Positions 1,540-61,429 are shown, numbered from the stretch's first letter. The stretch is DNA of 64,000 bases from Candidatus Poribacteria bacterium (GCA_965205015.1 OZ242029.1:2432001-2496000); one strand, 5' to 3'. A program made the numbers and translations. Notes: generated by a model from the letters alone, not told the origin.

Positions 1540-1816
1540 ACTATGTAATTATCGCAAAGTTTGGAAATATGGGAACACTTCAGGATAGGTTGATACCCCT
1601 GTCCTCCGCCGGCTGGGGCTCGTACCTATCCAGTTTATGAAAAAAAAAGAAATGTGATATACTGTTTCAGGTCAAGGAAAACATTATGCAGTAAATTATT
1701 TGTTTTCTTTTCTCACCTACCTCAGTGTGTTGATTCAATTGTTTGTGGGATAACTGATAACTTATGATGGAGATGTGGGGATAACCAAATCTGTTCGTGC
1801 ACCGTGGAGGATCCTG

Positions 1817-3784
1817 ATGGTGGAAAACGATGTTCAACTGATCCGTAGAATTTTGTCGGACGATGACGAGGCATTTAGTATCTTGGTCCAAAAGTACCAA
1901 AAGAGTGTTCATGCCCTTGTGTGGCGGAAAGTTAACGACTTTCACTATGCCGAGGAAATTACGCAAGATACCTTCTTCCAAGCATACAAAAAACTCTCGA
2001 CGCTCAAAAATCCCAACCAATTTGCCGGGTGGCTTTATGTCATTGCGAATCGACTTTGCATTAATTGGCTCCAACGCCACAAACCTGCGATGCAATCGCT
2101 GGAGGACACGCCTGTGGAAGAAATAGAAGAATCCGCTTATAACCATTATGCCGCGGAACAGCGCGAAGTCGAAGGCACCGAATATCGTTATGAAATCGCC
2201 CAAAGGCTGCTGTCCAAGCTCCCAGAGAGCGAACGCACAGTCATGACCCTCTACTACCTCGGGGAAATGACGGCGAAGGAGATTAGCAAATTTTTAGGCG
2301 TCTCAGTAAACACAATTACGAGTCGGCTGCGGCGGGCACGGGAACGCTTGCGGAAGGACCAAGAGCTCTTGGTTCAGGAAACCCTCGGCGGTGTGCAATT
2401 ATCCGCCAACCTCACCGAGAACATCATGCGACAGATCGCCGACGTAAAACCGACGCCGCCACCGGTTGCAAAGCCGCTCCTTCCATGGGGTGCTTTTGGT
2501 ATTGCGACGCTTCTGGTTGTCTTGCTGTTAGGTGCCACCGGTCAATACCTCGTCCGCTTTCAGAGACCCTATAGTTTCGAGGCAGCCTCCGAACCGACGG
2601 TTGAAATTATTGACACTTTTATCGTTCTTGATGTCGATTCAGAACCCGATGTACGGAACCAGATCGGACGAGCGACTTCCGCCGATAAAAACATCGGGAC
2701 AGGACGACAGACTTCTGAGACACCCTTGGTATCCGATACACAGGGAAATTCTCTCAGGTTTTCTGCGGCGCAGTGGGCGCGAAAAGCGGACATGCCAACC
2801 GCCCGGTCTGACTTTTCTACGTGTGTTGTAGATGGAAAGATATTCGTAATAGGGGGCAGTGCACGGCTCACAATACATGAAAGCGGAGACATGTCGCTTT
2901 CAACCGTAGAAATGTACGACCCTGAAACCGATACATGGGAAGAAAAGGCGAATATGCCAACAGTTCGGTCTGGTGTATCTGTATCAGTTGTGGATGGTAA
3001 AATCTACGCCATTGGCGGCTCAGAACAAAAGAAAATTACAGTAAAGATAGATGAGGTTACCCGCGGTTCCAGGATCGAGTCTAAAGAACTTCCAACTGTA
3101 GAAATGTATGATCCGGCTACGGACACATGGACCCAGAAAGCGGACATGCCGACCCCAAGGAAGACGAAGACCTGCGTTGTAGACGGCAAAATCTATGCCG
3201 TTGGTGGGTGGTTAACGGCTCATGAACAGTCGCAGTTAGAAACTGTGGAGATCTATGATCCAGCGGCGGACACATGGACAAAAGCCCAAAGTATGAACCA
3301 TGCGCGTTGCTCTGCAGCAATTAGTGTTGTGAACGGAGAAATCTATGCTATGGGCGGGCTAGGTTGGCCCCCGAATCGGGACCCGTCAGGTCAGTATCTG
3401 TCAAGTCTATATCTTTCCAGTGTTGAGGTGTTCAATCCAAAGACGAATCAATGGCACGAAAGAACAGAGATGTCTGTCCCGAAAGCGGATCACTCGACAA
3501 GCGCAATTGATGGCAAAATCTATGTCATGGGGGGTTACTTGCGGAAAGGTAAGGAATATAAAACCTTCTCAACAATTGAAATCTACGATCCCGCAATCGA
3601 TCGTTGGACCCAAGCGCCGGACATGCTGATTGGAAAATCGGGACATGCCACTGAGGTGATAGATGGGCAAATCTATATTTTTGGGGGAGGACCGCCTACG
3701 AGTGTCGAAGTTTACGATCCAAGAGCGGCTTCCGAGCGTGTCAATTCAGTAGGAAATTTTATGAAAACGGCGCGAACCCAGTAA
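1817..3784 (+). CDS. ECF sigma-70 factor fused to a TM helix and a C-terminal Kelch propeller
   Basis: Region 2 (AEEITQDTF...FAGWLYVIA), region 4 (LPESERTV...EISKFLGVSVNTITSRLRRAR), TM (LLPWGAFGIATLLVVLLLG), then Kelch repeats. Start moved to ATG 1817 after GGAGG RBS. Confidence 0.9.
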   Translation: MVENDVQLIRRILSDDDEAFSILVQKYQKSVHALVWRKVNDFHYAEEITQDTFFQAYKKLSTLKNPNQFAGWLYVIANRLCINWLQRHKPAMQSLEDTPVEEIEESAYNHYAAEQREVEGTEYRYEIAQRLLSKLPESERTVMTLYYLGEMTAKEISKFLGVSVNTITSRLRRARERLRKDQELLVQETLGGVQLSANLTENIMRQIADVKPTPPPVAKPLLPWGAFGIATLLVVLLLGATGQYLVRFQRPYSFEAASEPTVEIIDTFIVLDVDSEPDVRNQIGRATSADKNIGTGRQTSETPLVSDTQGNSLRFSAAQWARKADMPTARSDFSTCVVDGKIFVIGGSARLTIHESGDMSLSTVEMYDPETDTWEEKANMPTVRSGVSVSVVDGKIYAIGGSEQKKITVKIDEVTRGSRIESKELPTVEMYDPATDTWTQKADMPTPRKTKTCVVDGKIYAVGGWLTAHEQSQLETVEIYDPAADTWTKAQSMNHARCSAAISVVNGEIYAMGGLGWPPNRDPSGQYLSSLYLSSVEVFNPKTNQWHERTEMSVPKADHSTSAIDGKIYVMGGYLRKGKEYKTFSTIEIYDPAIDRWTQAPDMLIGKSGHATEVIDGQIYIFGGGPPTSVEVYDPRAASERVNSVGNFMKTARTQ

Positions 3785-7672: not shown

Positions 7673-10567
7673 ATGCAAAAAGATGATGTTCACCTGATTC
7701 GCAGCACCTTGTCAGGCAATGACGAGGCATTCAGCACTTTAGTGAAAAAATACCAAAAGGGTATTCACGCCCTTGCCTGGCGGAAAATTGGCGATTTTCA
7801 CTATGCAGAAGAAATTACGCAAGACACCTTCCTTCAGGCATACAAAAAACTCTCAACACTCAAGGATCCCAACCAGTTTGCGGGATGGCTCTACGTCATT
7901 GCAAATAGACTTTGCCTCAATTGGATGCGCAAGAAAAAACCTGTAATGCAATCGCTGGACGGGACATCTACGGGAGAGATAGAGAAATTTTCCTATAGCC
8001 ATTATGTATCGGAGCAGCGCGAGACAGAAGCCTTTGAACGTCGCAATGAAATCGTCAAAAAACTTCTTGCCAGATTGCCAGAGAGCGAACGCACGGTCGT
8101 TACGCTCTACTACCTCGGCGAAATGACAACAAAAGAAATTGGTGAATTCTTAGGTGTATCCGTGAAGACGATTCACAGTCGACTCCATCGGGCACGAAAG
8201 CGTTTGCAAGAGAAAGAGGAACTTTTGGTGAGTGATGTCCTCGGCGGTGTTCAATTACCCACCCGTCTCATTGAGAACATCATGCAGCAAGTTGCTGATC
8301 TGAGACCGACGCCACCTCCAGTCACGAAACCCTTACTTCCATGGATGGCTTTTGGCACGGCTGCCATCTTGGTTATATTGCTGCTGGGCATGAGCAATCA
8401 ATATCTTATCCGTTTTCAAAAGCCTTACAGTTTCGAGGCGCAATCTGAACCGATGATTGAAATCGTTGACACGCTTATTGTGCTTGATGTTGATGCCAAA
8501 CCGGCAGTGCGGAATCAAGTTGGACGTGCCGTTAACCCCGGTAAAAGCGTTAGTACCGGTTTGCCAAGTACTGAGACATTAACGTCCAATGTACAGGACG
8601 ATCTTGCTAAGCTCTCTACTTCGCAGTGGTCCCGAACAAATGGACCGTATGGTGGTACTGTGCAAAATATTTTCGCTACATCCGACAAGACTCTCTATGC
8701 TGCTGCACAATCAGGCATTTATAGACTGGCAGCGGGCGAAACTGCATGGACACTCATCAACAGGGATATACCGACCAATCGGATCCGAACGCCGATGGCA
8801 GCGCATGCCGACACCCTCTATATTGTTTCCACCGATAAAATATTCGCTTCAATCGATAAGGGTGAAACGTGGAATGTGTTCTGCTCCCGACCAAAAGGGC
8901 ATGCTGTTGGACTTATCATAACAAATGAGGCAGCCGGGCATACTTCACATCCACGTCCTATAATGTATCTCGCCCTTCAAATGAAAGGCGTTTTCCGATC
9001 CACAGATGCTGGTGAGCGATGGGATCTCCTGGGAAACGGACTGGCAAACAAAACCGTTTACGCTGTCGCTGCGATTGGAAACACGATGTTTGCTGGCACA
9101 AACGAGGGACTCTATCGCCTCAATTCAGATGTGTGGCAGCGATTATCGGTGCATCCCTTCCAACAAGCCATCCTGTCTCTAACCGTTTTTGAAAATAATC
9201 TCTATGTTGTAACGGGACCTGAGCCATCAGGATGGAAGTTTCGCGAATCAAGTGAAAATGTTACAGTTGAAAGTAGTATAGCAGTACAGATGAGCATCAT
9301 GCACAGCCTAAATTCAGAGAGGGTTTTCCATTCGATTGACTTGGGGGCATCGTGGACTGAGATAGCGGACAGAAATGAATCTCCTTTTAGGGATACAGCA
9401 CTGGAGGCGATATTTCTGATGAATACCGGCGAAATGTTCTTATCGCAAGGGGTTGTCGCGACGGACAAGAATACTTTTTACAGGGGCGGTTCCTTTGGTA
9501 TGGATCGCACAACCGATGGCGGTAAATCATGGCAGCCATTCATGAACGGGATAATGGGAACAACAATACACGATCTTGTCACGGTCAACAATAGACTTTA
9601 TGCACATACCAATAAAGGACTTGTTCAGTCAACTGACGGTGGCGAGGTGTGGAAAACCGTTGGGATTGATTCCGGTAAACATTCGCTTGAAGGGATAGAA
9701 GAAGAGTTTTCTCCGTTTCATTTCTCTCTCAATTCACAGTTAGCAATTGCTGGAGACGTTCTTTATGGAATCGCTCGCGAAAAAGACAATCTACGCCTTG
9801 TGCAATTATCTACAGGTAACAACACACTTGTTCCGGTTCAAAAGGCACCCACTTTTGAACGGGAATACTCGTCTATTGAACTCGCCACATGGACAGAAGG
9901 AATCAAACAGGGTCCTCCTGAAGAAAACGGGAACCCCTCACCAGTCGTAGCGTCCTTGGTTACAGACGATAGCAGGATTGGCGGGTTCGCAGTCAGCCGA
10001 CAAGCGTTCTATATTGAATGGAAGCACCGGCTTTTTAGGTGGAAACTCGGCGACTCGGAATGGACGGATACCGGGTTAATAGATACCAGTGGATCGCTTA
10101 ATGACAGATCTGATAAAGGCTTTAAATTAGCAGTTTCAGGGGAAACTGTCTACGTGGGTAAACGGGACGGCAAGTTGTTTCAATCACTCGATGAGGGGAA
10201 CAGTTGGAAAGATGTCACACCAATCCTGCCGCTCCATTTTACCCGTTTCAAAGAGATAGTCTTTGTGGGGTCAACGGTTTACGTTGCAACGGACGCAGGT
10301 GTCCTCGCTTCACAGAACGGTGAACACTGGCGCGTGCTCACCGATGAAATGGGTGCCCGTCCCGTCATAGATAGATTTGCTGTCGATCATTCCAATCTTT
10401 ATGGTGCGGGTGATGCAGGGATCTATCGTTTGGACGACCATCAGAGATGGCATCAGATTTTCCCAAGTGTTCCAGAGACAGTTGGCTCCCTTGTCATCAG
10501 CAATGACAAACTTTACGTTGCTACTCAGCATGGCAGGATGTTTCATATCCCTCTTGAATCGCGGTGA
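7673..10567 (+). CDS. ECF sigma-70 factor fused to a TM helix and a BNR/Asp-box beta-propeller
   Basis: First ~319 aa are paralogous to 1817-2776 (sigma regions 2/4, TM); then Asp-box repeats SIDKGETW, STDAGERW, TTDGGKSW, STDGGEVW, SLDEGNSW. Confidence 0.9.
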   Translation: MQKDDVHLIRSTLSGNDEAFSTLVKKYQKGIHALAWRKIGDFHYAEEITQDTFLQAYKKLSTLKDPNQFAGWLYVIANRLCLNWMRKKKPVMQSLDGTSTGEIEKFSYSHYVSEQRETEAFERRNEIVKKLLARLPESERTVVTLYYLGEMTTKEIGEFLGVSVKTIHSRLHRARKRLQEKEELLVSDVLGGVQLPTRLIENIMQQVADLRPTPPPVTKPLLPWMAFGTAAILVILLLGMSNQYLIRFQKPYSFEAQSEPMIEIVDTLIVLDVDAKPAVRNQVGRAVNPGKSVSTGLPSTETLTSNVQDDLAKLSTSQWSRTNGPYGGTVQNIFATSDKTLYAAAQSGIYRLAAGETAWTLINRDIPTNRIRTPMAAHADTLYIVSTDKIFASIDKGETWNVFCSRPKGHAVGLIITNEAAGHTSHPRPIMYLALQMKGVFRSTDAGERWDLLGNGLANKTVYAVAAIGNTMFAGTNEGLYRLNSDVWQRLSVHPFQQAILSLTVFENNLYVVTGPEPSGWKFRESSENVTVESSIAVQMSIMHSLNSERVFHSIDLGASWTEIADRNESPFRDTALEAIFLMNTGEMFLSQGVVATDKNTFYRGGSFGMDRTTDGGKSWQPFMNGIMGTTIHDLVTVNNRLYAHTNKGLVQSTDGGEVWKTVGIDSGKHSLEGIEEEFSPFHFSLNSQLAIAGDVLYGIAREKDNLRLVQLSTGNNTLVPVQKAPTFEREYSSIELATWTEGIKQGPPEENGNPSPVVASLVTDDSRIGGFAVSRQAFYIEWKHRLFRWKLGDSEWTDTGLIDTSGSLNDRSDKGFKLAVSGETVYVGKRDGKLFQSLDEGNSWKDVTPILPLHFTRFKEIVFVGSTVYVATDAGVLASQNGEHWRVLTDEMGARPVIDRFAVDHSNLYGAGDAGIYRLDDHQRWHQIFPSVPETVGSLVISNDKLYVATQHGRMFHIPLESR

Positions 10568-47439: not shown

Positions 47440-49362
47440 CTACGGCCAAATTCCATAAGTCGGTATATTAAACACCATTCCCAGTATTGTCCATAGACTC
47501 CCGACGGTAAATTGTCCCAATATCAAGCCGAGAAAGAAGGGCATCGCCTGCCGATGGGCATTTCTCCCACCGTATTTCAGCAGCAGCAATTTCAACACCC
47601 ACACGATCCCCAAACTGAACCAGATATAATTAACTGCCCAGCTCCCACACACGGCGGCATACGCTGCCGGATGAAAAGGGAACCAGAAAAACTTCATGCG
47701 CATCAACATGAGGAACAGCGCGAAGAGTAAACCAATTCCCGTAAATCCCAACGCCCAATAGTCTGGAGCAAGCGGATGTGCTAACCATTTCTGCAGCTGC
47801 GTCCACGGTTCAGACCCGTATATGATTGGCACGCGGGACATCTCGTGTAAAGCACCGAGTCGGTAAGGGATGGATATGAGTGCCCAAAATTGCGAGAGGA
47901 TACCGACGCACAGCGCGATAAGGATTGCAAATAGCATAAAACGACTTCGGATTCCCGACGTTGAGGCAAGTTTGAACCCCTCAAGTTGATGGGGCATCGG
48001 ATGTGAATCGAAGGTGCGTGTAAAGAACCAGAAGAAAGAGAACATCGAAAGATTATTCGGTCCGAGCGGACGCGTGCCTACAGCCGCGACCATGACCCGT
48101 TCGGGTCCTGTATAGTGCAAGTCGTGCATTGGCGATCCGAGTTCGGCGCGCATCCGAGAGACCGCCGTTGAAAATGCAAAATAGAGTCCAAAAAAGACGA
48201 GAATCGCCCAGAGGGACATACCCGCCCTCAAACAAAAAAACGTCAGAAACGCAACACCAGCAACCAGGGCGAGAAGAAGGAGCCTGGGGGACATCGGTTC
48301 ATCCCGCGTAGATGTGGGATGAACGTTCGCGCCCAGTAAATTCTGCAGATATTTTCGGCCCCTCCACATGGCAATAAAAAAGATGCCCATATACGCCCCA
48401 AATCCCTGATAGTTGACGTAAGGATACCCCGTCCCTTCCAAACCCATCATGCTTCCAACGACCTGTTGCCCCTTCCACACCCAAAAGAAAAACCATGTCG
48501 AAAACAACAGATCCAACGGAATCAGGAATCCGATGCCTAACACAAAGGGATAAATTCCCAATCTCAGCCACCCCATCGCAGAGAAGGGTTTCTCTGTGAA
48601 TCTGAAACGGTATGCTTTCTCATATACGGAGGGGATCGCAGGAAAAACGTGGTGGAGACCGTTAGCGACATCGAAAGCCGCGACAAGCCCGAAACCGATC
48701 CACATCAGCCGATTCGTGAAGAAACCCTCGCTCGTCATCCGGGCTGGGAGTTGGATGATCGGGTACGCCAGTTTCTCATCTTCTGTCCACGGTTTCCGCA
48801 CGATGACAGTGATGCAAACCATAACAAACAGCATCGCAAAGAGAAAGGCGAACCAGTTTAGCACAGGCGTTAGCCAACCCAACAGATGTTGCTTTGTGTG
48901 CAGTGTAGAATCTCCCTCGTAGTAGCCCGAAAGAACACCCTTGTCCGACACGGCAAGCCAACGCGGAATATACCGCCAAAACAGGTCTTTCCAATCGTTC
49001 TCCGGCGTTGCGAACCAGAACGCGTGCCCCAATGTGGAAACCAGAATCTCCATCATGCTGTGTCCCGCAGTCGCGGATGCCACGGAGAGCATGACATAAA
49101 TGATCAGGAGTTCACCTTGTGAGAGAGCCAACCGAGGCAGGAATCGCTTGAATACTCGGTTGAATCCGATCAACACAAGAATATTGAAAACAACCGTGAA
49201 AATAAGCGAGACGATGGTGGGCTGTGCGGAATACTGCACCAGTTCAATATACGTAATCCAATAACAATTGAGAGGGATGAGAATAATTCCAATTGCTATA
49301 GACCGCCAGCCGACCGATGAGGGCGGTTTTGATGGAGATAAAGTCGGTTTCGTGTGCGGCAT
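47440..49362 (-). CDS. Polytopic membrane protein, DUF6785/DUF6784-like
   Basis: Many TM helices; ELLIIY.M, RKPW...EKL.YP..QLP, WFPFHP, KYGG, PFFLGLILG; paralogue of 59477-61429. Confidence 0.75.
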   Translation of the reverse strand: MPHTKPTLSPSKPPSSVGWRSIAIGIILIPLNCYWITYIELVQYSAQPTIVSLIFTVVFNILVLIGFNRVFKRFLPRLALSQGELLIIYVMLSVASATAGHSMMEILVSTLGHAFWFATPENDWKDLFWRYIPRWLAVSDKGVLSGYYEGDSTLHTKQHLLGWLTPVLNWFAFLFAMLFVMVCITVIVRKPWTEDEKLAYPIIQLPARMTSEGFFTNRLMWIGFGLVAAFDVANGLHHVFPAIPSVYEKAYRFRFTEKPFSAMGWLRLGIYPFVLGIGFLIPLDLLFSTWFFFWVWKGQQVVGSMMGLEGTGYPYVNYQGFGAYMGIFFIAMWRGRKYLQNLLGANVHPTSTRDEPMSPRLLLLALVAGVAFLTFFCLRAGMSLWAILVFFGLYFAFSTAVSRMRAELGSPMHDLHYTGPERVMVAAVGTRPLGPNNLSMFSFFWFFTRTFDSHPMPHQLEGFKLASTSGIRSRFMLFAILIALCVGILSQFWALISIPYRLGALHEMSRVPIIYGSEPWTQLQKWLAHPLAPDYWALGFTGIGLLFALFLMLMRMKFFWFPFHPAAYAAVCGSWAVNYIWFSLGIVWVLKLLLLKYGGRNAHRQAMPFFLGLILGQFTVGSLWTILGMVFNIPTYGIWP

Positions 49363-50166
49363 TTATTCTTGATATGAGAAAACCAGTGGCAAGTGTTCAT
49401 CATCCGCCAACACATCGCCGGTTTTCAACTTCGCAACCACTTCATTGGGTAACGCGCTTTTTTTTCCGTTGAAGGTGGCATCCTCCGGCATAAAAAGCAT
49501 GGCAAACGCACGGCGCGGGTGCGTCGTCATATTCGGTCCCGCCGCATGCGCAACCATCCCACTGATGAATACACCCGCTCCGGCTTTCATCTCAGCAGCG
49601 TAGGGTTCAATCTCTGCCCATTCTGGATACTCGCGGAACAGTTCGCCGACACCCGCTTGTCCGAGAATCCCGCCGATCTCAAAGTTGCTTGTCTTGTGCG
49701 TCCCGGGCAGAAGATACAAACAGCCGTTCTGAACGGTTGTATCATCAAGTGCCACCCAGAACATGATCGCCTGATGCGAATAGAAGGGGTCATACGGATT
49801 ATCGACATGGAAGTTCGTGGGATTTGCCCACGGTTGCTTCACCATGGCGTGATCGTGATACAACCGCACACCCGAAGTGCCAGCGAGATCTGCCGCCAAC
49901 TTACCCAACTCGGGATCAAGGATCAATCGTTTAACCTTCTCGTTCGTCTTCCACAAATTGACGCATTGAACGAAGACGTTCTTGTAGTAACCGTCTTTTC
50001 CCTTTTGATTGTGGAAGGCGTCAGGACGGCTCACATGCTGCGCGACAGCCTCGTCAACGGCATCCTGCCACACTGACAACTCGGCACCGTTCAGGAAATC
50101 GTCAATAACCAGGAACCCATTTTCACGGTAAAATTCAATCTGATCGTTCGCAACTTGTGTATTCAT
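49363..50166 (-). CDS. PhyH-family dioxygenase
   Basis: YRENGFL, HVD, WVALDD..VQNGCL..LPGTH, H..GPN. Confidence 0.9.
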   Translation of the reverse strand: MNTQVANDQIEFYRENGFLVIDDFLNGAELSVWQDAVDEAVAQHVSRPDAFHNQKGKDGYYKNVFVQCVNLWKTNEKVKRLILDPELGKLAADLAGTSGVRLYHDHAMVKQPWANPTNFHVDNPYDPFYSHQAIMFWVALDDTTVQNGCLYLLPGTHKTSNFEIGGILGQAGVGELFREYPEWAEIEPYAAEMKAGAGVFISGMVAHAAGPNMTTHPRRAFAMLFMPEDATFNGKKSALPNEVVAKLKTGDVLADDEHLPLVFSYQE

Positions 50167-50197
50167 GGCATCTTAGGTGATCGGAGATATGTGCCTC

Positions 50198-51001
50198 TCA
50201 ATCATAATTGCTGGGTCGGTGATCGCCGAGGAGTCGTCTCTGGCGTGGATTCGCTTGGGAGAGAATTGAGGCATCAAACTGAAACTTGTTCAGATAGGGT
50301 GGGTATTTCTGTGTAATCATCCGCTGCGCATAGTGTACCTGTAAAAGGTAGCGGGTTTCGTCACTCGTATTGGCAGAGCCACGATGCCAGACTTCACTAC
50401 GGAAAAGCACCACATCCCCTGCATTGCATAAGATACTCTCTTCCGTCCTGCCTTTCCACTCCGTTGCCCCGTTTGGAGAGCATCCAGAGAAGTGGCTACC
50501 CGGAACAAACTTTGTCGGTCCCAATTCCTCATACATATTGTTGAGATAGTAATGAGCAGTCGTGATGAAGATTGGAACTTTGACGCGTGGATCGGAACGA
50601 ACGTCTGCAGGGAGACCGATTGGCAGCCAATCCGTATGTAAGCCTTGATCCGGACGCCCGGGTCCTGTTATCCACGATTGCATGCCGATGCAATGACAAT
50701 CCTCACCGTGCGTCGCCTCGGCAACCTCAATAATCGGTGATTTGTCAAGGAATTGGAGATACAGTGGGTCGCGATTAAATGAGTTGTTGATGATTTTATT
50801 CAGGAATCCATCGCCATTTTGAGGCGTTTGGTGTCGATCCAAACACTCCGGGATCGTCTCTAATCGATCCATCATGGCTCGCAATTCGGCGACTTCCTCA
50901 GCATCAAGCACGCCGGGGAAATAGACGTAACCATCCCTTTCCAATGCTTCAACTTGGCTTTCTAAATCGTTATGTGCCACGAGGGAGAGAGCTTTCGCCA
51001 T
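50198..51001 (-). CDS. PhyH-family dioxygenase (duplicate A)
   Basis: LHTD...WHRG; near-identical to 51739-52542. Confidence 0.9.
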   Translation of the reverse strand: MAKALSLVAHNDLESQVEALERDGYVYFPGVLDAEEVAELRAMMDRLETIPECLDRHQTPQNGDGFLNKIINNSFNRDPLYLQFLDKSPIIEVAEATHGEDCHCIGMQSWITGPGRPDQGLHTDWLPIGLPADVRSDPRVKVPIFITTAHYYLNNMYEELGPTKFVPGSHFSGCSPNGATEWKGRTEESILCNAGDVVLFRSEVWHRGSANTSDETRYLLQVHYAQRMITQKYPPYLNKFQFDASILSQANPRQRRLLGDHRPSNYD

Positions 51002-51104
51002 TTTCAGTACTCCTTGCGGATTTTAAAATGGTTCAAAGTTCAATAATTCAAGGCGCACTGCTGGCTGTCCAATCGTCCGTATCCAGCGAAGACACTCCTT
51101 GAAA

Positions 51105-51129
51105 GGCGAGGTTAGGAAACCTCGCCAGC
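51105..51129. repeat. REP-like hairpin
   Basis: GGCGAGGTT-aggaa-ACCTCGCCAGC; reverse complement of 12617-12641. Confidence 0.75.
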
Positions 51130-51148
51130 GAAAGTAGGATTATTACAA

Positions 51149-51724
51149 CTATTCTGCCAATACAATGACACCACACCCGATACGCGCGCCTGCAGCACCC
51201 GAAGGTTGCGAGACGAAATCGTCCGCGTCGGCGTGGACAATGATGCCTTTGCCGACAACATCTATGTCGGAACCTGTGCCGATCTCCCAGAGATCTGTCG
51301 TCAATGTAATACGACCTGTTCCATCTGCTCCGACGTTGATATTGCCGATGTCTCCGAGATGAAACTCACCTTCTCCCCATTTTCCGTGCGCGACATCCGT
51401 GGGATTCCAGTGCCCCCCGGCGGATTTACCGTCGGGTGAACTGCAATCCCCGTTTGCGTGGATATGAAAGCCGTGAAGACCCGGGGAGGCACCGTGAATT
51501 TCAGCCGTGAGCGTGATCTGGTCGCCGTTTTGTGTGAAGACTGCCATTCCGGTTACGCCACTGTCGCCCAGTGCGTCGATCATGGCGTGTGCTTGTGCAG
51601 CGGACGCAGTTGAGAGAATCCCTGCTTGTGGGTTCACTCGATCGCAACCCATTGATATGATAGAAATACCGAGCAATAGAAAGAATACAGGTTTTATACC
51701 GATAGACATTAAACGCGTTTTCAT
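51149..51724 (-). CDS. sodC: Cu/Zn superoxide dismutase, lipoprotein
   Basis: Lipobox-like SMGC; HGFHIH, SAGGHWNP, HG, HLGD.GN, IVHADADD, GARIGCGVI. Confidence 0.95.
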   Translation of the reverse strand: MKTRLMSIGIKPVFFLLLGISIISMGCDRVNPQAGILSTASAAQAHAMIDALGDSGVTGMAVFTQNGDQITLTAEIHGASPGLHGFHIHANGDCSSPDGKSAGGHWNPTDVAHGKWGEGEFHLGDIGNINVGADGTGRITLTTDLWEIGTGSDIDVVGKGIIVHADADDFVSQPSGAAGARIGCGVIVLAE

Positions 51725-51738
51725 TGATAACTCCTTTG

Positions 51739-52542
51739 TTAATCGTAATTACTTGGTCGATGGTCTCCCATAAGCCGTCTCTGTTGAGGGGTCGCTTGGG
51801 CGAGAATCGATGCATCAAACTGAAACTTATTCAGATAGGGTGGATATTTCTGTGTAATCATCCGCTGTGCATAGTGGACCTGCATGAGATAACGGACTTC
51901 GTCACTCGTATTGGCAGAACCCCGATGCCAGACTTCACTACGGAAAAGCACCACGTCCCCCGCATTGCATAGGATACTCTCTTCCTCGCGGTTATTCCAC
52001 GCCGTTGCGCCGTTTGGAGAACCTCCAGAGAGATGACTGCCCGGAACAAACTTCGTCGGTCCCAATTCCTCGTACATATCATTGAGATAGTAATGGGCTG
52101 TGGTGATAAAGACCGGGATTTTGACGCGTGGATCGGAACGAATCTCTGCGGGTAGAGAGATCGGCAGCCAATCCGTATGTAACCCCTGATCCGGACGTCC
52201 CGGTCCTGTCAGCCACGAATGCATACCGATGCAATGAAAATCCGCACCGTGTGCCGCCTCGGCAACTTCAAAAACGGGGGATCTGTCCAGGAATTGGAGA
52301 TACAACGGGTCGCGATTAAACGAGTTGCTGATAAGTTTGTGGAGGAATTGATCGCCATTTTCAGGTGTTTCATCCCGATCATGAGACTCAGGGATCGCCT
52401 CTAATCGATCCATAGTGGCACGCAATTCAGCGATTTCATCGGCATCAAGCACACTCGGGAAATAGACATACCCATCCCTTTCCAGTGCCTCAATTTGGCT
52501 TTCCAAGTCGTTGTATGCAACGAGGGAGAGGGCTTTCGCCAT
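51739..52542 (-). CDS. PhyH-family dioxygenase (duplicate B)
   Basis: Same 267-aa frame as duplicate A, starting MAKALSLV after GGAG. Confidence 0.9.
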   Translation of the reverse strand: MAKALSLVAYNDLESQIEALERDGYVYFPSVLDADEIAELRATMDRLEAIPESHDRDETPENGDQFLHKLISNSFNRDPLYLQFLDRSPVFEVAEAAHGADFHCIGMHSWLTGPGRPDQGLHTDWLPISLPAEIRSDPRVKIPVFITTAHYYLNDMYEELGPTKFVPGSHLSGGSPNGATAWNNREEESILCNAGDVVLFRSEVWHRGSANTSDEVRYLMQVHYAQRMITQKYPPYLNKFQFDASILAQATPQQRRLMGDHRPSNYD

Positions 52543-52700
52543 TTTCTGGACTCCTTTCAAACAATAACAACGGTTCAGAGCTTATCCGATATGATATGTT
52601 AACCGCAACGCCGTTGTCAATAAAAATTGTGTCCGAACTGGATTTCAAGCACCGGGATTTCCGCTAAGGTCCACCACAAAGCGATTGCCCGATACATCAA

Positions 52701-54866
52701 CTACACCGCTTTAAGTTTTCGCCATAGGGTTGTCCGACTGATCCCCAAACGTTGTGCAGCGAGTTGTGGCTTTCCATCGGATTCCTCCAAAACGCGTTGC
52801 ACTAATTCACGTTCCAATGCAGCAAGGGGGTTACTTTCCCTGAGTGCCTGCGCAACAATATCGTCTCTTGAGGAAATAAGATCGGGGGGTAGATGTTGCT
52901 TTTCAATGCTGCCCCCCTGACATTTGACGAAGGCGTGCTCTATAATATTCTCTAACTCTCGCACATTGCCGGGGTAGGTATAATCCACTAAGATTTCAAG
53001 GGCATCGGGTGAGGTGCGATGAATGGATTTTTGTGTTTGTTGATTGAATTTTTCGATGAAGTGTTCAATCAGGAGTGGAATGTCATCGCGTCTTTCACGG
53101 AGTGGCGGCGGGGTAATCGGGACGACATTGAGCCTGTAGTATAAATCCTCTCGGAAACGTCCGGCATCGATCTCTGTCTTCAGGATTCGATTGGTCGCTG
53201 CAATGACGCGAACATCTACTTTCTTTGTCGCCGTTGAACCGACCATTTCGTATTCGCCCTCTTGCAAGACGCGGAGCAACTTTGCTTGTGTTCCGAGACT
53301 TAACTCACCGATTTCATCAAGAAAAAGGGTGCCCCCGTCCGCAGCTGCGAATCGTCCTTTCCGCGTAGCGATGGCATCGGTAAACGCACCTTTGACATGT
53401 CCAAAGAGTTCACTCTCTAACAAATTATCAACCAAGCCAGCGCAATTGACGCGGATGAAGGGTTTTTTCGCCCTCTCGCTATTGTCGTGGATTGCATGAG
53501 CAATCGGTTCTTTGCCGGTCCCGCTCTCGCCTTGAATCAGGACGGTCGTTTTCATGGGAGCGACAAGTCGAATTAACTCAAAAATCTCCTGCATTTTCCG
53601 GTTTTTTCCAATGAGATTTCCAAACGAATGGTGCTCCTTCAGTTGGGCACTGAGTGCCTTTACCTCCGAGAGATCACGGGCAAACCCTTGGATGAATTCT
53701 CTCTCGCCATGCGCAATTCGGATGGCGCGAATTTCTAAGGGTAAACGGTTTCTGTTTTTACGCGACAGTTCCGTTTGGAAAGTAATAGGATTCTGTGGGT
53801 CAAGGTCTTTGAGCGTTTCGCTGGCTCTTTGAAATTCAGCGGGAGGCGTTAGGTCACGCAGTGAAAGATTGACGAGTTCTTGGTGTGTGTAACCCAGCCA
53901 TGCACAGAAATTTTCGTTTACGGTAACAAACGCTTCTGTCAGTGATGGACAAATGAAGATTGCGTCGTTTGACATCTCAAAAAGTGTGCGGTATCGTTTG
54001 TTGTTTTCGGCGAGTTTGTCTGTCCAATCCCCTTTTTCAATCAGAATTGAGAGTTGTCCAGCAATCGGCTTTAATCTCCTGATATGCACCTCGGAAAATG
54101 ATCGGGGTTTTTCACTGGTGAAAAAGACGACCCCAATGGGTTTACCCTGCACTTTGAGCGGAAGGGTTAGATTGGAGCGCATCCCCTCTTGGACCATTAA
54201 CCGTGTCCAGTGCGTCGGTCTTCTTGCGAGAATTTCCTTAAAATCGTCAATAATCCGCGCTTCACCTGAATTGAGGATAGGCGCAAGGCTTGATCCCTTA
54301 ATTTTCGCTGAAAACCCGTTGTCCAGCAGAATTTTTCTGTTGGATTTCGTTTTACACTGCACTAAATTACCGGAGGATTCGTCAATAAGTGCGATGCCTA
54401 ACCGGTTATGGGGCACGATGTTCTGAAGTCCAGTGTAAATATTCTCAAAGACTTCATCGAGTGTCTTTCCCAGCTGAATCTGCTCAAGGATCTCATAGAC
54501 CTGATCGGTTTCAATGGCTGCCTTAAAGACGGTATCTTCGAGACTGTTGTTTGCGTGTTCTTCAAGGGTGATTGCAACCTGAAGGGTATCCCCATGGATT
54601 CGGAGCGGATAGGTTCGGAGGTTCGGCGTGGTAATAGGACATCCACTTTTCAGATTGTATTGCCAACCGTGCCACGGACAGGTAACGACTTCACCCGCCA
54701 GTGTTCCCTCATTGAGCGGTCCCCCCTGATGCGGACAGGTGTTATTGATCGCATAAAATTCTGTCCCTGTGTTGAAGATTGCAATGTCTTCATTGTCCAA
54801 TTTGATGACGATATTCTGTCCCGGTTCAATTTCAGATGTTTTAGCGATGTTAATCCACTTCACCAT
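52701..54866 (-). CDS. Sigma54-dependent activator with N-terminal Rieske [2Fe-2S], GAF and PAS domains and a Fis-type HTH
   Basis: Rieske CPH...CPWH; GAF (GMRSNLTLPL..QGKPIG); PAS (YRTLFE..NDAIF...N...LGY); GESGTGKE, ESELFGH.KGAFTDA, LFLDEIG, FREDLYYRL, PGNVRELEN; AAQRLGISRTTLWRK. Confidence 0.92.
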   Translation of the reverse strand: MVKWINIAKTSEIEPGQNIVIKLDNEDIAIFNTGTEFYAINNTCPHQGGPLNEGTLAGEVVTCPWHGWQYNLKSGCPITTPNLRTYPLRIHGDTLQVAITLEEHANNSLEDTVFKAAIETDQVYEILEQIQLGKTLDEVFENIYTGLQNIVPHNRLGIALIDESSGNLVQCKTKSNRKILLDNGFSAKIKGSSLAPILNSGEARIIDDFKEILARRPTHWTRLMVQEGMRSNLTLPLKVQGKPIGVVFFTSEKPRSFSEVHIRRLKPIAGQLSILIEKGDWTDKLAENNKRYRTLFEMSNDAIFICPSLTEAFVTVNENFCAWLGYTHQELVNLSLRDLTPPAEFQRASETLKDLDPQNPITFQTELSRKNRNRLPLEIRAIRIAHGEREFIQGFARDLSEVKALSAQLKEHHSFGNLIGKNRKMQEIFELIRLVAPMKTTVLIQGESGTGKEPIAHAIHDNSERAKKPFIRVNCAGLVDNLLESELFGHVKGAFTDAIATRKGRFAAADGGTLFLDEIGELSLGTQAKLLRVLQEGEYEMVGSTATKKVDVRVIAATNRILKTEIDAGRFREDLYYRLNVVPITPPPLRERRDDIPLLIEHFIEKFNQQTQKSIHRTSPDALEILVDYTYPGNVRELENIIEHAFVKCQGGSIEKQHLPPDLISSRDDIVAQALRESNPLAALERELVQRVLEESDGKPQLAAQRLGISRTTLWRKLKAV

Positions 54867-54943: not shown

Positions 54944-54979
54944 TGTTTCATAAATGAAAATTGTTTCATTTATGAAATA
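54944..54979. promoter_or_regulatory. Two tandem TGTTTCA-N4-TGAAA operator/UAS sites
   Basis: TGTTTCAtaaaTGAAAAT (54944-54961) and TGTTTCAtttaTGAAATA (54962-54979). Confidence 0.7.
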
Positions 54980-54995
54980 ATCTTTATTTTTTAAC

Positions 54996-55230
54996 ACTTA
55001 CGCACGCCACTGGTAGGTGCGGTTTGATGAAGATTAAGAATTTAATTCGGCAATATGTGGGCAGGCACAAGACCTGGGGAAACACCCAAGCAAAAACCCC
55101 CTACAAAGTCTTTTTTGGGATAGGATTACCGAAATATTTATTTAAGCTTCATTAACCGCACCGGACTCGTGATAGTAACCCTTTGTGCTGTCCGAAGATA
55201 GGCGTTTCAGCTCAATTTTGCGTGAGTCCT
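54996..55230. mobile_element. Nested stack of MITE/REP-like repeats
   Basis: Outer ACTTACGCA...TGCGTGAGT; REP halves GGTGCGGTT (55016-24)/AACCGCACC (55154-62); imperfect 28-bp TIR element 55027-55152; inner REP 55059-55104 interrupted by the CCCAAGCAAAAA cassette. Confidence 0.6.
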
Positions 55231-55264
55231 GTTTCTAAAACTTCAAAGCACTTAGTTCAAGTTT

Positions 55265-55282
55265 TGTTTCAGATTTGAAACA
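55265..55282. promoter_or_regulatory. Perfect palindromic UAS TGTTTCA-gatt-TGAAACA
   Basis: Palindrome about 76 bp upstream of the -24 box; matches 54944-54979. Confidence 0.75.
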
Positions 55283-55357
55283 TATCGAAAAAATCTGAAA
55301 TTTCATTTTACCCTGTAAAACCTTGAATTATCTCAATTGTATACGAACCTGAGGGTT

Positions 55358-55372
55358 TGGCACGAAACTTGC
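55358..55372 (+). promoter_or_regulatory. Sigma54 (-24/-12) promoter
   Basis: TGGCAC-gaaac-TTGC, matching the consensus with exact spacing. Confidence 0.88.
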
Positions 55373-55403
55373 GAACCTATTTATTAACGTGAGTTCCGTA
55401 TTT

Positions 55404-55464
55404 GTAGAGCAAACTTTTAGTTTGCGTCTCAACACTACCTACACAAACTGGCAGTTTGTGCTAC
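55404..55464. repeat. Inverted pair of GTAG-type REP hairpins in the 5' UTR
   Basis: GTAGAGCAAACTtttAGTTTGC and CACAAACTggcAGTTTGTGCTAC. Confidence 0.55.
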
Positions 55465-55521
55465 AAATGTCAATATATTTTGAGGCTTTACTATAACCCT
55501 AAATTTCAGGAGGATCTAAAA

Positions 55522-55932
55522 ATGAGCCGTTATCTTGAACATGCTAACATGAGCGTGAATGACCTTGAAAAAGCGATCCATTTTCTAACGACTGCCTTCC
55601 CAGAATTTCGAGTCAGGGGCGGTGGTGATAATGCGAACGGAACGAAATGGTGCCATCTCGGGACTGACGATTTTTATATTGCATTGTCAGATCGCAAGCA
55701 TCCGTTCACAGGTGACCGTGAGGGGACCTATGTGAACCATCTCGGTTTTGCTGTTGATGACGCTGAAGGTATCAGAGAACGCATGTTGGCTGCTGGATAT
55801 AAGGAAGGTTACAAAGTCGAACCCCATCCTTACCGGAAACGCATCTATTTCATTGATGTGGACGGTTTTGAATGGGAGTTCGTCGAATACTTCACGGAGG
55901 ATCCAGCGAAACGGAACGATTATTCACAGTAA
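55522..55932 (+). CDS. VOC/glyoxalase family protein
   Basis: EHANMSV.DL, NHLGF.VDD, IYF.D.DG.EWEFVEY; AGGAGG RBS. Confidence 0.9.
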   Translation: MSRYLEHANMSVNDLEKAIHFLTTAFPEFRVRGGGDNANGTKWCHLGTDDFYIALSDRKHPFTGDREGTYVNHLGFAVDDAEGIRERMLAAGYKEGYKVEPHPYRKRIYFIDVDGFEWEFVEYFTEDPAKRNDYSQ

Positions 55933-59476: not shown

Positions 59477-61429
59477 ATGGCACATCACAGAAATTATGAA
59501 AATCATTGGTCAAAAAGGGCATTAATTATCGGCATCGTCTTAGCTGTTTTAGAATGTTTGATCGCGCCCTACAACGATTTTGTCATTCGGAACACCTTTC
59601 TGGCAGGGGGTCATTTCCCGCTTGCCCCGTTTTTTGCCCTAACCGTCTTGGCGCTGGTTGTGAATGCTGTCCTAAGATGCCTACATCCGAAACTCGCGCT
59701 CTCCGCTCAGGAACTCGTCGTTATCTGGTGTATCATGATTGCCGTCGCGGGTATCCCCTCATCGGGAATGATGCGCGACGCATTGTCCGCTTTCGCGGCT
59801 TACAATTATTTCGCAACCCCAGAGAACGAGTGGCGATCCCTTTTCTTCCAATACATCCCCGAATGGCGTGTCGTGCGAGATGAGACCGCGATTGCCTCCT
59901 TCTATGAAGGCGTGTCCGTCGGCGAGCGGATTCCTTGGGGCGCATGGCTGAAACCGCTCTCCGTATGGGCATTGTATATTTTAACCGCCTATTTCGTCAT
60001 GGTGTGCCTCGCTGTGATCCTCCGTAAACAGTGGATTGAGTATGAGAAATGCACGTTTCCGCTCGTTCAACTGCCTGTAGAACTCTCCGTCCATCGGTCA
60101 GGCATTGTCAATTCATTCTTCAGAAGCAGAAAGATGTGGCTCGGCTTCGCGATACCGGCGTTCATCCACACCCTAAACGGGCTGCAAGCGTATTTCCCGA
60201 CCCTCCCACACATCCCCGTCCGATTTTGGCTCGATCCGTTTCTCGTCGGCAGACCCCTCAATGCTCTAAGACCCTTTCAGATTGTCGTGCTGATGTCGAT
60301 GGTTGGATTCAGTTACCTGCTTACACTTGAAGTCGCGTTCAGCCTCTGGTTTTTCTTCCTGTTTTTCAAACTGCAATGTCTCGTCGGCAGTATGCTCGGT
60401 TTCCTCATAACGAAGGGTCCGGGTGTAAAATGGACGGCGTATTCGTTTAGCGCGGCGCAGGAAGCCGGTGCGTGTCTTACGCTTGGAGGATTTGCACTCT
60501 TCAAGGCGCGGCGGCATATCAAGCAACTATTCTTAAGCGGTTTTGGACGCGGTTCCCCGCAGTCGGATGTCCAAGAGGAACCGATGCCCGCTGGACTGAC
60601 AGTCATAGGGCTGATCGGAGGCGTGCTCCTCTTAATATACCTGAGTGTCCTGATGGGAATGTCTATCGGATTTGCCGTCCTCTTTGTGATCTTCTCGGTA
60701 GGTGTGTTTGTCGCCTTGACATGGCAGATTATCAACGGTGGTATCCCTTTTATCAATCCCTCATTTTCACCGCAAAGTTTTTTTCTCACAACCCTTGGAA
60801 CCGCACGGATGACCCCTTCAACAACAACATGGCTGTTCATGCAGCCCACCGGTTTAACCTCCCACCTAAGAGAGTTTATGATGCCGAATGTAATGAATGG
60901 ACTCAAGGCAGCGGATACCGTGAAAGCCAACCGGCGCAAACTCCTCATAGCGATGGGAGTGGCGATGGTGCTCGGATTGCTCGTTTCATATTATTCCGTG
61001 CTGAAAGTTAGTTATCAACACGGGGCGTTACACGTGCATACAGGGGGTAGCGGCGGGGTGCGCTGGCTGAGTGCCGTCCTTAACAGCCCTCCGATGGGAA
61101 CAGACTGGACGCATACCGGTTTTACACTTTTCGGCAGTGCCTTTACAATTGGATTGATGTGGATGCGAAAAGTTTTCGTCTGGTGGCCGATCCATCCGAT
61201 CGGATACACGATGCTGAGCTCGTGGGCATCGTTTAAGTTATGGTTCTCTATCCTCCTCGGTTATCTCCTGAAATACGGGATTGTGAAATACGGCGGACTC
61301 AAAGCCTATAGAGAAGCACGTCCCCTGTTTCTCGGATTAATCCTCGGTGAGATGACCTGCGCCGGACTCTGGTCGATCGTTGGAATGCTAACCGGTGTCC
61401 AAACCGGCTATCGCATCTTATTGGATTGA
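59477..61429 (+). CDS. Polytopic membrane protein, DUF6785/DUF6784-like
   Basis: ELVVIW.M, FATPENEW, RKQW.E.EK..FPL.QLP, WWPIHPIGY, KYGG, PLFLGLILG. Confidence 0.75.
   Translation: MAHHRNYENHWSKRALIIGIVLAVLECLIAPYNDFVIRNTFLAGGHFPLAPFFALTVLALVVNAVLRCLHPKLALSAQELVVIWCIMIAVAGIPSSGMMRDALSAFAAYNYFATPENEWRSLFFQYIPEWRVVRDETAIASFYEGVSVGERIPWGAWLKPLSVWALYILTAYFVMVCLAVILRKQWIEYEKCTFPLVQLPVELSVHRSGIVNSFFRSRKMWLGFAIPAFIHTLNGLQAYFPTLPHIPVRFWLDPFLVGRPLNALRPFQIVVLMSMVGFSYLLTLEVAFSLWFFFLFFKLQCLVGSMLGFLITKGPGVKWTAYSFSAAQEAGACLTLGGFALFKARRHIKQLFLSGFGRGSPQSDVQEEPMPAGLTVIGLIGGVLLLIYLSVLMGMSIGFAVLFVIFSVGVFVALTWQIINGGIPFINPSFSPQSFFLTTLGTARMTPSTTTWLFMQPTGLTSHLREFMMPNVMNGLKAADTVKANRRKLLIAMGVAMVLGLLVSYYSVLKVSYQHGALHVHTGGSGGVRWLSAVLNSPPMGTDWTHTGFTLFGSAFTIGLMWMRKVFVWWPIHPIGYTMLSSWASFKLWFSILLGYLLKYGIVKYGGLKAYREARPLFLGLILGEMTCAGLWSIVGMLTGVQTGYRILLD

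Follow-up and report, generated by a model that had tools for sequence, protein, structure and literature searches.

A Rieske ferredoxin domain at the N-terminus of a predicted sigma-54 enhancer-binding protein of Candidatus Poribacteria and its putative oxygenase-like ancestral target

The 64,000-nucleotide stretch of Candidatus Poribacteria DNA analysed here (the window; GCA_965205015.1 OZ242029.1:2432001-2496000) carries on its minus strand a gene (52701-54866; ATG at 54866, stop at 52701, no stop inside) for a 721-residue predicted sigma-54 bacterial enhancer-binding protein (bEBP; P0001), hereafter the regulator, whose Rieske-GAF-PAS-AAA+-HTH order is drawn from the open reading frame (ORF), Pfam, and NCBIfam. 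Specifically, Pfam places Rieske at residues 3-84 (E 1.3e-19), GAF_2 at 134-277, and PAS_9 at 301-401, followed in the C-terminal half by Sigma54_activat at 418-584 (E 3e-70), the AAA lid at 590-668, and HTH_8 at 681-720. The Rieske [2Fe-2S] ferredoxin domain (PF00355; residues 1-100, 54567-54866, minus strand) is of the dioxygenase-ferredoxin type: its best PDB sequence match is CarAc, the carbazole dioxygenase ferredoxin (E 3.6e-15), and residues 1-100 of an AlphaFold2 (AF2) model superimpose on the naphthalene dioxygenase ferredoxin 2qpz with a Z of 17.7 and a root-mean-square deviation (rmsd) of 1.3 over 100 residues. The conserved cluster-ligand motif C44-x-H46-x16-C63-x2-H66 (54669-54737, minus strand) reads C44-P-H46-x16-C63-P-W-H66, within the Rieske ferredoxin pattern Cys-x-His-x15-17-Cys-x2-His. 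Downstream in the same frame, and likewise on the minus strand, lie the GAF domain (residues ~121-280, 54027-54506; Pfam, alignment, and model), the PAS domain (residues ~291-403, 53658-53996; Pfam), the bEBP AAA+ domain (52863-53615; Pfam, motifs, and a structural match to FleQ with Z 29.7), and the Fis-type HTH_8 DNA-binding domain (52707-52826; Pfam). The AAA+ domain has a Walker A motif GESGTGKE(P) at 446-453, Walker B at 514-519, an arginine-finger region at 570-579, and sensor II at 633-638, while its L1 loop is GAFTDA (residues 493-498, 53373-53390), a variant of GAFTGA; in other clades of the family the loop is GAFTGA, GAYTGA, GSYTGA, or GAFSGA. In the window's clade, and likewise in P0022 and the P0049-P0053 group, the residue directly after Walker A is Pro (GESGTGKEP, 53505-53531) in place of Leu. 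With Walker A and B, arginine finger, sensor II, Fis-type HTH, and the boxes and promoter described below, the protein carries these hallmarks of a sigma-54 bEBP. No NCBIfam equivalog scores above cut-off and all matches are confined to the C-terminal half; the NorR equivalog, for instance, reaches 345 bits against a cut-off of 476 over residues 400-718. A preliminary description of this DNA had reported an intact N-terminal Rieske domain in frame with GAF, PAS, a GAFTDA-bearing AAA+ domain, and HTH, and this observation is confirmed by the 721-residue ORF, the Pfam order, the loop position, and the conserved ligands, the one correction being the ligand spacer, which is x16 and not x17.

The fusion of a Rieske domain to a bEBP is not an assembly error, because 51 of the 94 homologue clusters retrieved with residues 1-290 of the regulator have both PF00355 and PF00158 and because the four ligands are almost invariant; the objections raised beforehand, an assembly artefact or a lack of orthologues, thus fail. 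The ligands are conserved in all of the 36 proteins aligned (from 53 family members, picked for spread at 53-93% identity to the window, P0011 left out), an alignment in which neither GAF nor PAS has an invariant Cys, and the ligand motif is present in 101 of 104 family proteins, the exceptions being one H66Y allele (P0011), one fragment, and one deletion form. Moreover, an RNA-library contig from another study (X1 record 4) crosses the Rieske-GAF junction (53983-54836, 27 differences), and a DNA contig is identical over 53603-54696, although the sequencing run is possibly that of the source sample. The family is mostly labelled Candidatus Poribacteria, with two proteins labelled Acidobacteria, and the window protein belongs to a 181-member cluster at 90% identity labelled Poribacteria. 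Among 150 genomes sampled from the Poribacteria phylum, 36 have the Rieske-GAF fusion in single copy and 2 a form beginning at GAF; pattern scans for family loci gave at least 7 and at least 4 full-fusion loci among the matches listed. None of the 401 Acidobacteriota-phylum and 168 Latescibacterota-phylum genomes searched gave the fusion; as only 6 or 14 candidates were scored per genome, this is not proof of absence. At 50% identity, the best 150 matches contain the full-length fusion as a single cluster, together with fragments, and a search with the Rieske domain alone yields no independent Rieske-regulator fusion among 28 matches. The distribution looks like that of a single event with a narrow spread. 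One 362-residue protein (P0274) has three tandem Rieske ferredoxin domains akin to that of the regulator.

The intergenic DNA ahead of the regulator contains three predicted enhancer boxes of the form GTTTCA-N4-TGAAAC, found by repeat search and comparison with relatives: box 1 (54945-54960) and box 2 (54963-54978) with one mismatch each, and box 3 (55266-55281), identified by comparison with relatives, exact and 92 nt ahead of the -24 element. A predicted sigma-54 -24/-12 promoter, TGGCACGAAACTTGC (55358-55372, plus strand), points away from the regulator and is the single exact match to TGGCAC-N5-TTGC in the window. Between box 3 and the promoter lies an IHF-like site (55316-55328, minus strand, one mismatch to the consensus of integration host factor, IHF), kept in the same register with at most one mismatch in 18 of 22 relatives. 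The -24/-12 match by itself is weak, since at one mismatch 5 sites are seen in the window against 4.2 expected, and the promoter call therefore rests on conservation: the strict promoter is present in 8 of 11 related loci, and boxes with at most one mismatch in the intergenic DNA of 9 of the 11, the remaining two having a two-mismatch box. The box background is low (2 matches in 1.57 Mb of DNA around stand-alone Rieske genes), and the joint pattern box-N60-90-promoter occurs in 22 of the 150 Poribacteria-phylum genomes, every time adjoining the regulator, while a control pattern occurs in none. A second locus of one relative (G003), on a 3.6-kb contig from which the regulator is absent, has three boxes and a -24/-12 site ahead of a target gene of the Rieske-600 kind introduced below, and thus links the boxes to the target without recourse to synteny with the regulator. 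The sigma-54 gene rpoN was found in 5 of 5 close-relative genomes tested. In RNA sequencing runs, the region is present only as contigs of 85-99% identical relatives; because these contigs span the intergenic DNA and come from relatives, neither expression nor a start site can be deduced from them. Two further observations concern this intergenic DNA. The window has ~240 nt extra between boxes 2 and 3 (54990-55260; 303 nt start to start versus ~58-60 nt in the most compact relatives), part of which belongs to a high-copy repeat (depth 8,735 versus ~250, run X14) with 31-nt inverted arms and which is probably a small mobile repeat. The leader between the promoter and the next gene contains a 28-nt inverted repeat (55400-55468), missing in several relatives with shorter leaders.

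The predicted target in the window is a VOC/glyoxalase-fold gene of 136 residues (55522-55932, plus strand; Pfam and comparison with relatives), whose residues H7, H45, H73, H102, and E119 are retained in the 52-53% identical copies of G003. The target differs among relatives, and one form of it is a gene for Rieske-600, a group of ~600-residue proteins with an N-terminal Rieske domain that comprises types A and B. In all 9 GAYTGA loci for which upstream DNA is available, one or two Rieske-600 genes stand behind the promoter; another stands there in L007/L081 and, past intervening ORFs, in L219, and Rieske-600 is the divergent gene in metagenome locus L084. L007 and its near-copy L081 have the order Rieske-600 B, flavin mononucleotide (FMN) reductase, VOC (53% identical to the window's), and TPR. 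Across the 28 GAFTDA loci, window included, the first gene is VOC in 17, M24 peptidase-like in 5, cupin in 3, and Rieske-600 B in 3, with VOC part of the unit in 27; VOC was not found in 3 of 3 GAYTGA-clade genomes. From these gene orders we infer an ancestral operon of Rieske-600, FMN reductase, and VOC; the GAYTGA clade would since have lost VOC, and the window's clade would mostly have lost the oxygenase-like gene, so that the window's VOC gene is explained as a remnant; the Rieske-600 genes of L192/L193 may alternatively reflect re-insertion by recombination. Close relatives have several more Rieske-600 genes elsewhere in the genome, and a wider regulon in the window's clade was considered and rejected, the four copies checked that are remote from the regulator (L162-L164, L167) having neither boxes nor promoter. 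On the other side, behind the regulator and co-directional with it, lie SodC (a Cu/Zn superoxide dismutase) and three PhyH-type dioxygenase genes (49363-52560); they were rejected as parts of the module because their adjacency is confined to the window's own clade.

Rieske-600 has at least 6,069 sequence clusters of relatives, and Pfam assigns nothing to its C-terminal 470 residues. Its AF2 model (predicted local distance difference test, pLDDT, 89.8; predicted template modelling score, pTM, 0.88) has an all-helical fold like that of the questin oxidase BTG13: residues 140-570 align with BTG13 (7y3w) at Z 17.5 and rmsd 4.2 over 332 residues with 12% identity, and the helical domain aligns with the hydroquinone dioxygenase PaD at Z 14.7. 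Foldseek gave Rieske matches only, among the matches listed. BTG13 binds its iron through four His and a carboxylated Lys377 (PMC12173810). Mapped by eye, the H275, H411/T414, and H522/Q525 motifs of Rieske-600 can be placed on repeats 2-4 of PF14027 proteins from bacteria, repeat 1 has no His, and the putative ligands are three His and a Gln in type A and two His, an Asn, and a Gln in type B; H275, H522, and Q525 are found in 7 of 7 distant full-length homologues listed, and the H411 motif in 5 of the 7. Rieske-600 is thus predicted from its model to be a Rieske-fed non-haem-iron oxygenase, an identity that stays a prediction because profile tests do not confirm the BTG13 link, and the ancestral operon probably served the attack on, or detoxification of, an aromatic or quinone-like compound. 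In two other Poribacteria loci (L165 and L170), a tandem pair of distant Rieske-600 paralogues (~25% identity) is without the His motifs.

The need for the Rieske domain can be judged from selection and from natural variants. The ratio of nonsynonymous to synonymous substitution rates (dN/dS; pooled pairwise, with intervals by codon bootstrap and pairs that are not independent) is 0.20 [0.14-0.29] for the Rieske domain in 25 GAFTDA-clade genes and 0.12 [0.07-0.19] in 10 GAYTGA-clade genes, against 0.04 to 0.14 for GAF, PAS, AAA, and HTH; judged by these ratios, the domain is conserved, yet it is less constrained than any other folded domain of the protein in the window's clade. Three members, L221 (13248-15067), L222 (12819-14638), and P0096, show an in-frame loss of residues 7-119 with the junction KWIN-TDQVY, and the L221 and L222 loci retain the three boxes and the promoter. 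These two are sisters in the tree (support 93), and the GAF parts of their genes differ at 39 of 111 synonymous sites, while their remaining domains have dN/dS values of 0.03-0.13; this many synonymous differences at such low ratios indicates that the Rieske-less protein is kept under selection. In L208, the regulator copy is frameshifted. The L1 loop bears on this as well: most L1-loop changes in other bEBPs are damaging, whereas NorR G266D, the equal of GAFTDA, fully escapes repression by GAF and still activates and forms open complexes (PMC2941729). The clean in-frame loss under purifying selection, together with this equivalence, suggests that the Rieske domain is likely a removable, probably inhibitory, control input, and control in the window's clade has probably been loosened (GAFTDA loop; Rieske lost in one sub-lineage). 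The deletion would fit negative control of the kind seen in OrpR-deltaPAS (PMC8359166) and NorR-deltaGAF (PMC2941729). Because the domain has been cleanly lost in one sub-lineage, activity of the family need not depend on the cluster everywhere.

Taken together, the locus admits a tentative yet credible proposal, in which the Rieske domain would serve as a reversible one-electron redox sensor, coupled to the flow of electrons that supplies the oxygenase. The regulator would bind the three boxes and fire the divergent -24/-12 promoter; GAF and PAS would likely bind a small molecule; the Rieske cluster would come to equilibrium with the reductase or ferredoxin pool from which the oxygenase, too, draws its electrons and, in one redox state, would restrain the AAA+ domain, so that one chain would do what ThnA3, ThnY, and ThnR do with three proteins. 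A redox input is supported by the near-invariant ligands, by the purifying selection on the Rieske domain, and by the kinship of the domain to the soluble electron carriers of the dioxygenase-ferredoxin type. The preliminary description had suggested, among other options, a regulator wired to an electron-transfer chain, and that suggestion, while still at the level of a proposal, gains support because the ancestral target is a Rieske-fed oxygenase-like protein accompanied by an FMN reductase; its overall interpretation is thus partly supported. A fuller version holds that electrons from the reductase of the oxygenase and a substrate bound by GAF/PAS form an AND gate, that the oxygenase represents an undescribed Rieske/BTG13-fold class with three His, that the regulator founds a new class of sigma-54 sensor, and that the Rieske deletion and GAFTDA are evolved 'unlocked' forms of sponge-associated lineages, a combination that is unlikely to hold in all its parts.

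Several findings weigh against a redox input coupled to the oxygenase. Cluster binding, DNA binding, and activation by the regulator are predictions from sequence, and the AF2 model (36 input sequences, pLDDT 79, pTM 0.42) folds the individual domains without confident packing of Rieske on the others (linker 101-120 with pLDDT <50). The oxygenase is gone from behind the promoter in 25 of the 28 GAFTDA loci, window included, where the Rieske domain is kept; the FMN reductase is seen in L007/L081 only; L082 (1987-3856) and L083 (175-2008) keep regulator and boxes and face SDR and QueA-like genes, and no strict -24/-12 site was found in L082-L084. As for the target, the link to BTG13 comes from structure only, sequence and profile tests giving no link to PF14027 (hhalign probability 0.3%), helical models can score Z ~14 by chance, and the Lys of the 4-His-1-Kcx site of BTG13 apparently corresponds, by eye, to Gln525. 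Moreover, the regulator's Rieske domain clusters with stand-alone ferredoxins (chosen by their likeness to the regulator) and not with the Rieske domain of the target; because of this grouping, the idea that the sensor arose when the target's Rieske domain was duplicated was dismissed. Lastly, 37 of 149 stand-alone ferredoxin loci lie directly downstream of the Fe-S carrier gene Mrp/ApbC, an adjacency that favours a different role for the cluster.

In that different role, which we regard as unlikely, the Rieske domain would gauge Fe-S or iron supply, the activator working only if its own cluster can (or cannot) be built, so that enzyme output is matched to the supply of cofactor. The targets would be iron or Fe-S enzymes, sensor and target sharing the cofactor type, and the Mrp/ApbC neighbours concern the closest free relatives of the domain; however, a few lineages, Nitrospirota among them, are over-represented among the stand-alone loci, so that the 37 are not independent; genes for Fe-S assembly or iron uptake are absent behind the promoter in the loci classified, and Rieske ferredoxins usually hold their cluster stably. 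Another account, improbable in our view, takes the Rieske domain as accessory or vestigial, a passenger or decoupled ferredoxin, above all in the GAFTDA clade, with the signal carried by GAF and PAS. The long-tolerated deletion and the GAFTDA loop, freed of GAF repression and still active in its NorR equivalent (PMC2941729), fit an accessory domain too, as do the H66Y allele, the frameshifted copy, and the lower dN/dS of GAF (0.09 versus 0.20 for Rieske). Conversely, all 35 intact genes retain the four ligands, as do proteins that are just 53% identical, and the dN/dS of the Rieske domain is far under 1 in both clades, whose intervals overlap. About as doubtful is a cluster sacrificed to O2, nitric oxide (NO), or oxidants, whose damage would release the activator onto a stress-defence operon; detoxification is a frequent role of VOC proteins and FMN reductases, and SodC stands on the regulator's side in the window. 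Redox-responsive bEBPs do exist (OrpR, PMC8359166; NorR, PMC2941729; PexR, PMC12754779), NorR and PexR also using three enhancer sites, but the O2 or NO sensing first suggested for the regulator finds nothing specific, given that no NO- or O2-defence gene (flavorubredoxin, flavohaemoglobin, catalase, peroxiredoxin, norV-like) stands behind the promoter in any locus classified, that SodC adjoins the regulator in the window's clade alone, and that a SoxR association of Rieske-600 oxygenases is not seen in 8 target loci (two other phyla).

The remainder of the window holds other features. Two genes (1775-3784 and 7673-10567) code for extracytoplasmic function (ECF) sigma factors fused to long C-terminal domains, with Kelch repeats in the first; another Kelch gene lies at 475-1539. 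Two DUF6785/DUF6784 membrane proteins (47440-49362 and 59477-61429) flank the regulator region.

To our knowledge, Rieske domains are known as electron carriers rather than as sensor modules of transcription factors, and neither a Rieske-input transcription factor nor a Rieske-questin oxidase fusion was found in the open full-text literature (subscription papers and supplements lying outside this scope), in agreement with the preliminary description, which knew of no characterised Rieske-input bEBP. If the redox input tied to the oxygenase is true, it would provide a stable, reversible one-electron signal, in contrast to FNR, OrpR, and other fragile Fe-S sensors. For testing, the system comes with predicted boxes and a promoter, with natural alleles that have no Rieske domain or a variant loop, and with a large target family, and the identity of the inducer would give a first functional handle on the Rieske-600 family and on the metabolism of Poribacteria.

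Among known systems, the free ferredoxins CarAc (1vck) and 2qpz have the same fold and ligands as the regulator's Rieske domain and differ in being free carriers, whereas that of the regulator is fused. On the target side, BTG13 and PaD (PF14027) resemble Rieske-600 in the helical fold and the three by-eye His motifs, while Rieske-600 adds a Rieske domain, is without the first-repeat His, has Gln525 in place of the carboxylated Lys, and has no sequence match to PF14027. In Sphingopyxis granuli TFA, electrons flow from the Rieske ferredoxin ThnA3 (-112 mV) to the co-regulator ThnY while the dioxygenase is idle, and the ThnA3-ThnY-ThnR system is alike in that the redox state of a Rieske cluster reports on an oxygenase electron chain and sets the transcription of the pathway (PMC4814904); there, however, ferredoxin, Fe-S flavoprotein, and LysR activator are separate proteins, whereas in the regulator Rieske is fused to a sigma-54 AAA+ domain, and the likeness is one of working only. 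NorR of E. coli and PexR of Myxococcus xanthus share with the regulator the GAF-bEBP type, divergent sigma-54 targets, and three enhancer sites (PMC2941729, PMC12754779); they hold mononuclear Fe or Zn in GAF through His/Asp/Cys ligands, whereas the regulator's GAF is without an invariant Cys and is joined by Rieske and PAS, and the regulator is not NorR, being below the equivalog cut-off and facing no norV-like target. The iron-binding GAF of NorR had been named beforehand as an example of metal sensing by a bEBP; to it must be added OrpR (DVU2106) of Desulfovibrio vulgaris, a bEBP with a [4Fe-4S] cluster in PAS proposed to sense redox potential (PMC8359166). OrpR and the regulator are both sigma-54 bEBPs with an N-terminal Fe-S domain and divergent targets, and removal of the sensor from OrpR gives constitutive expression (PMC8359166), while a Rieske-less form of the regulator exists in nature. 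In OrpR, by contrast, the cluster is a labile [4Fe-4S] held by three Cys within PAS, whereas the regulator has a separate 2-Cys/2-His Rieske domain ahead of GAF and PAS, no invariant Cys in PAS, and different boxes and targets (no orp operon). OrpR is thus already an Fe-S-sensing bEBP, and the Rieske-input form would be a variation on its theme.

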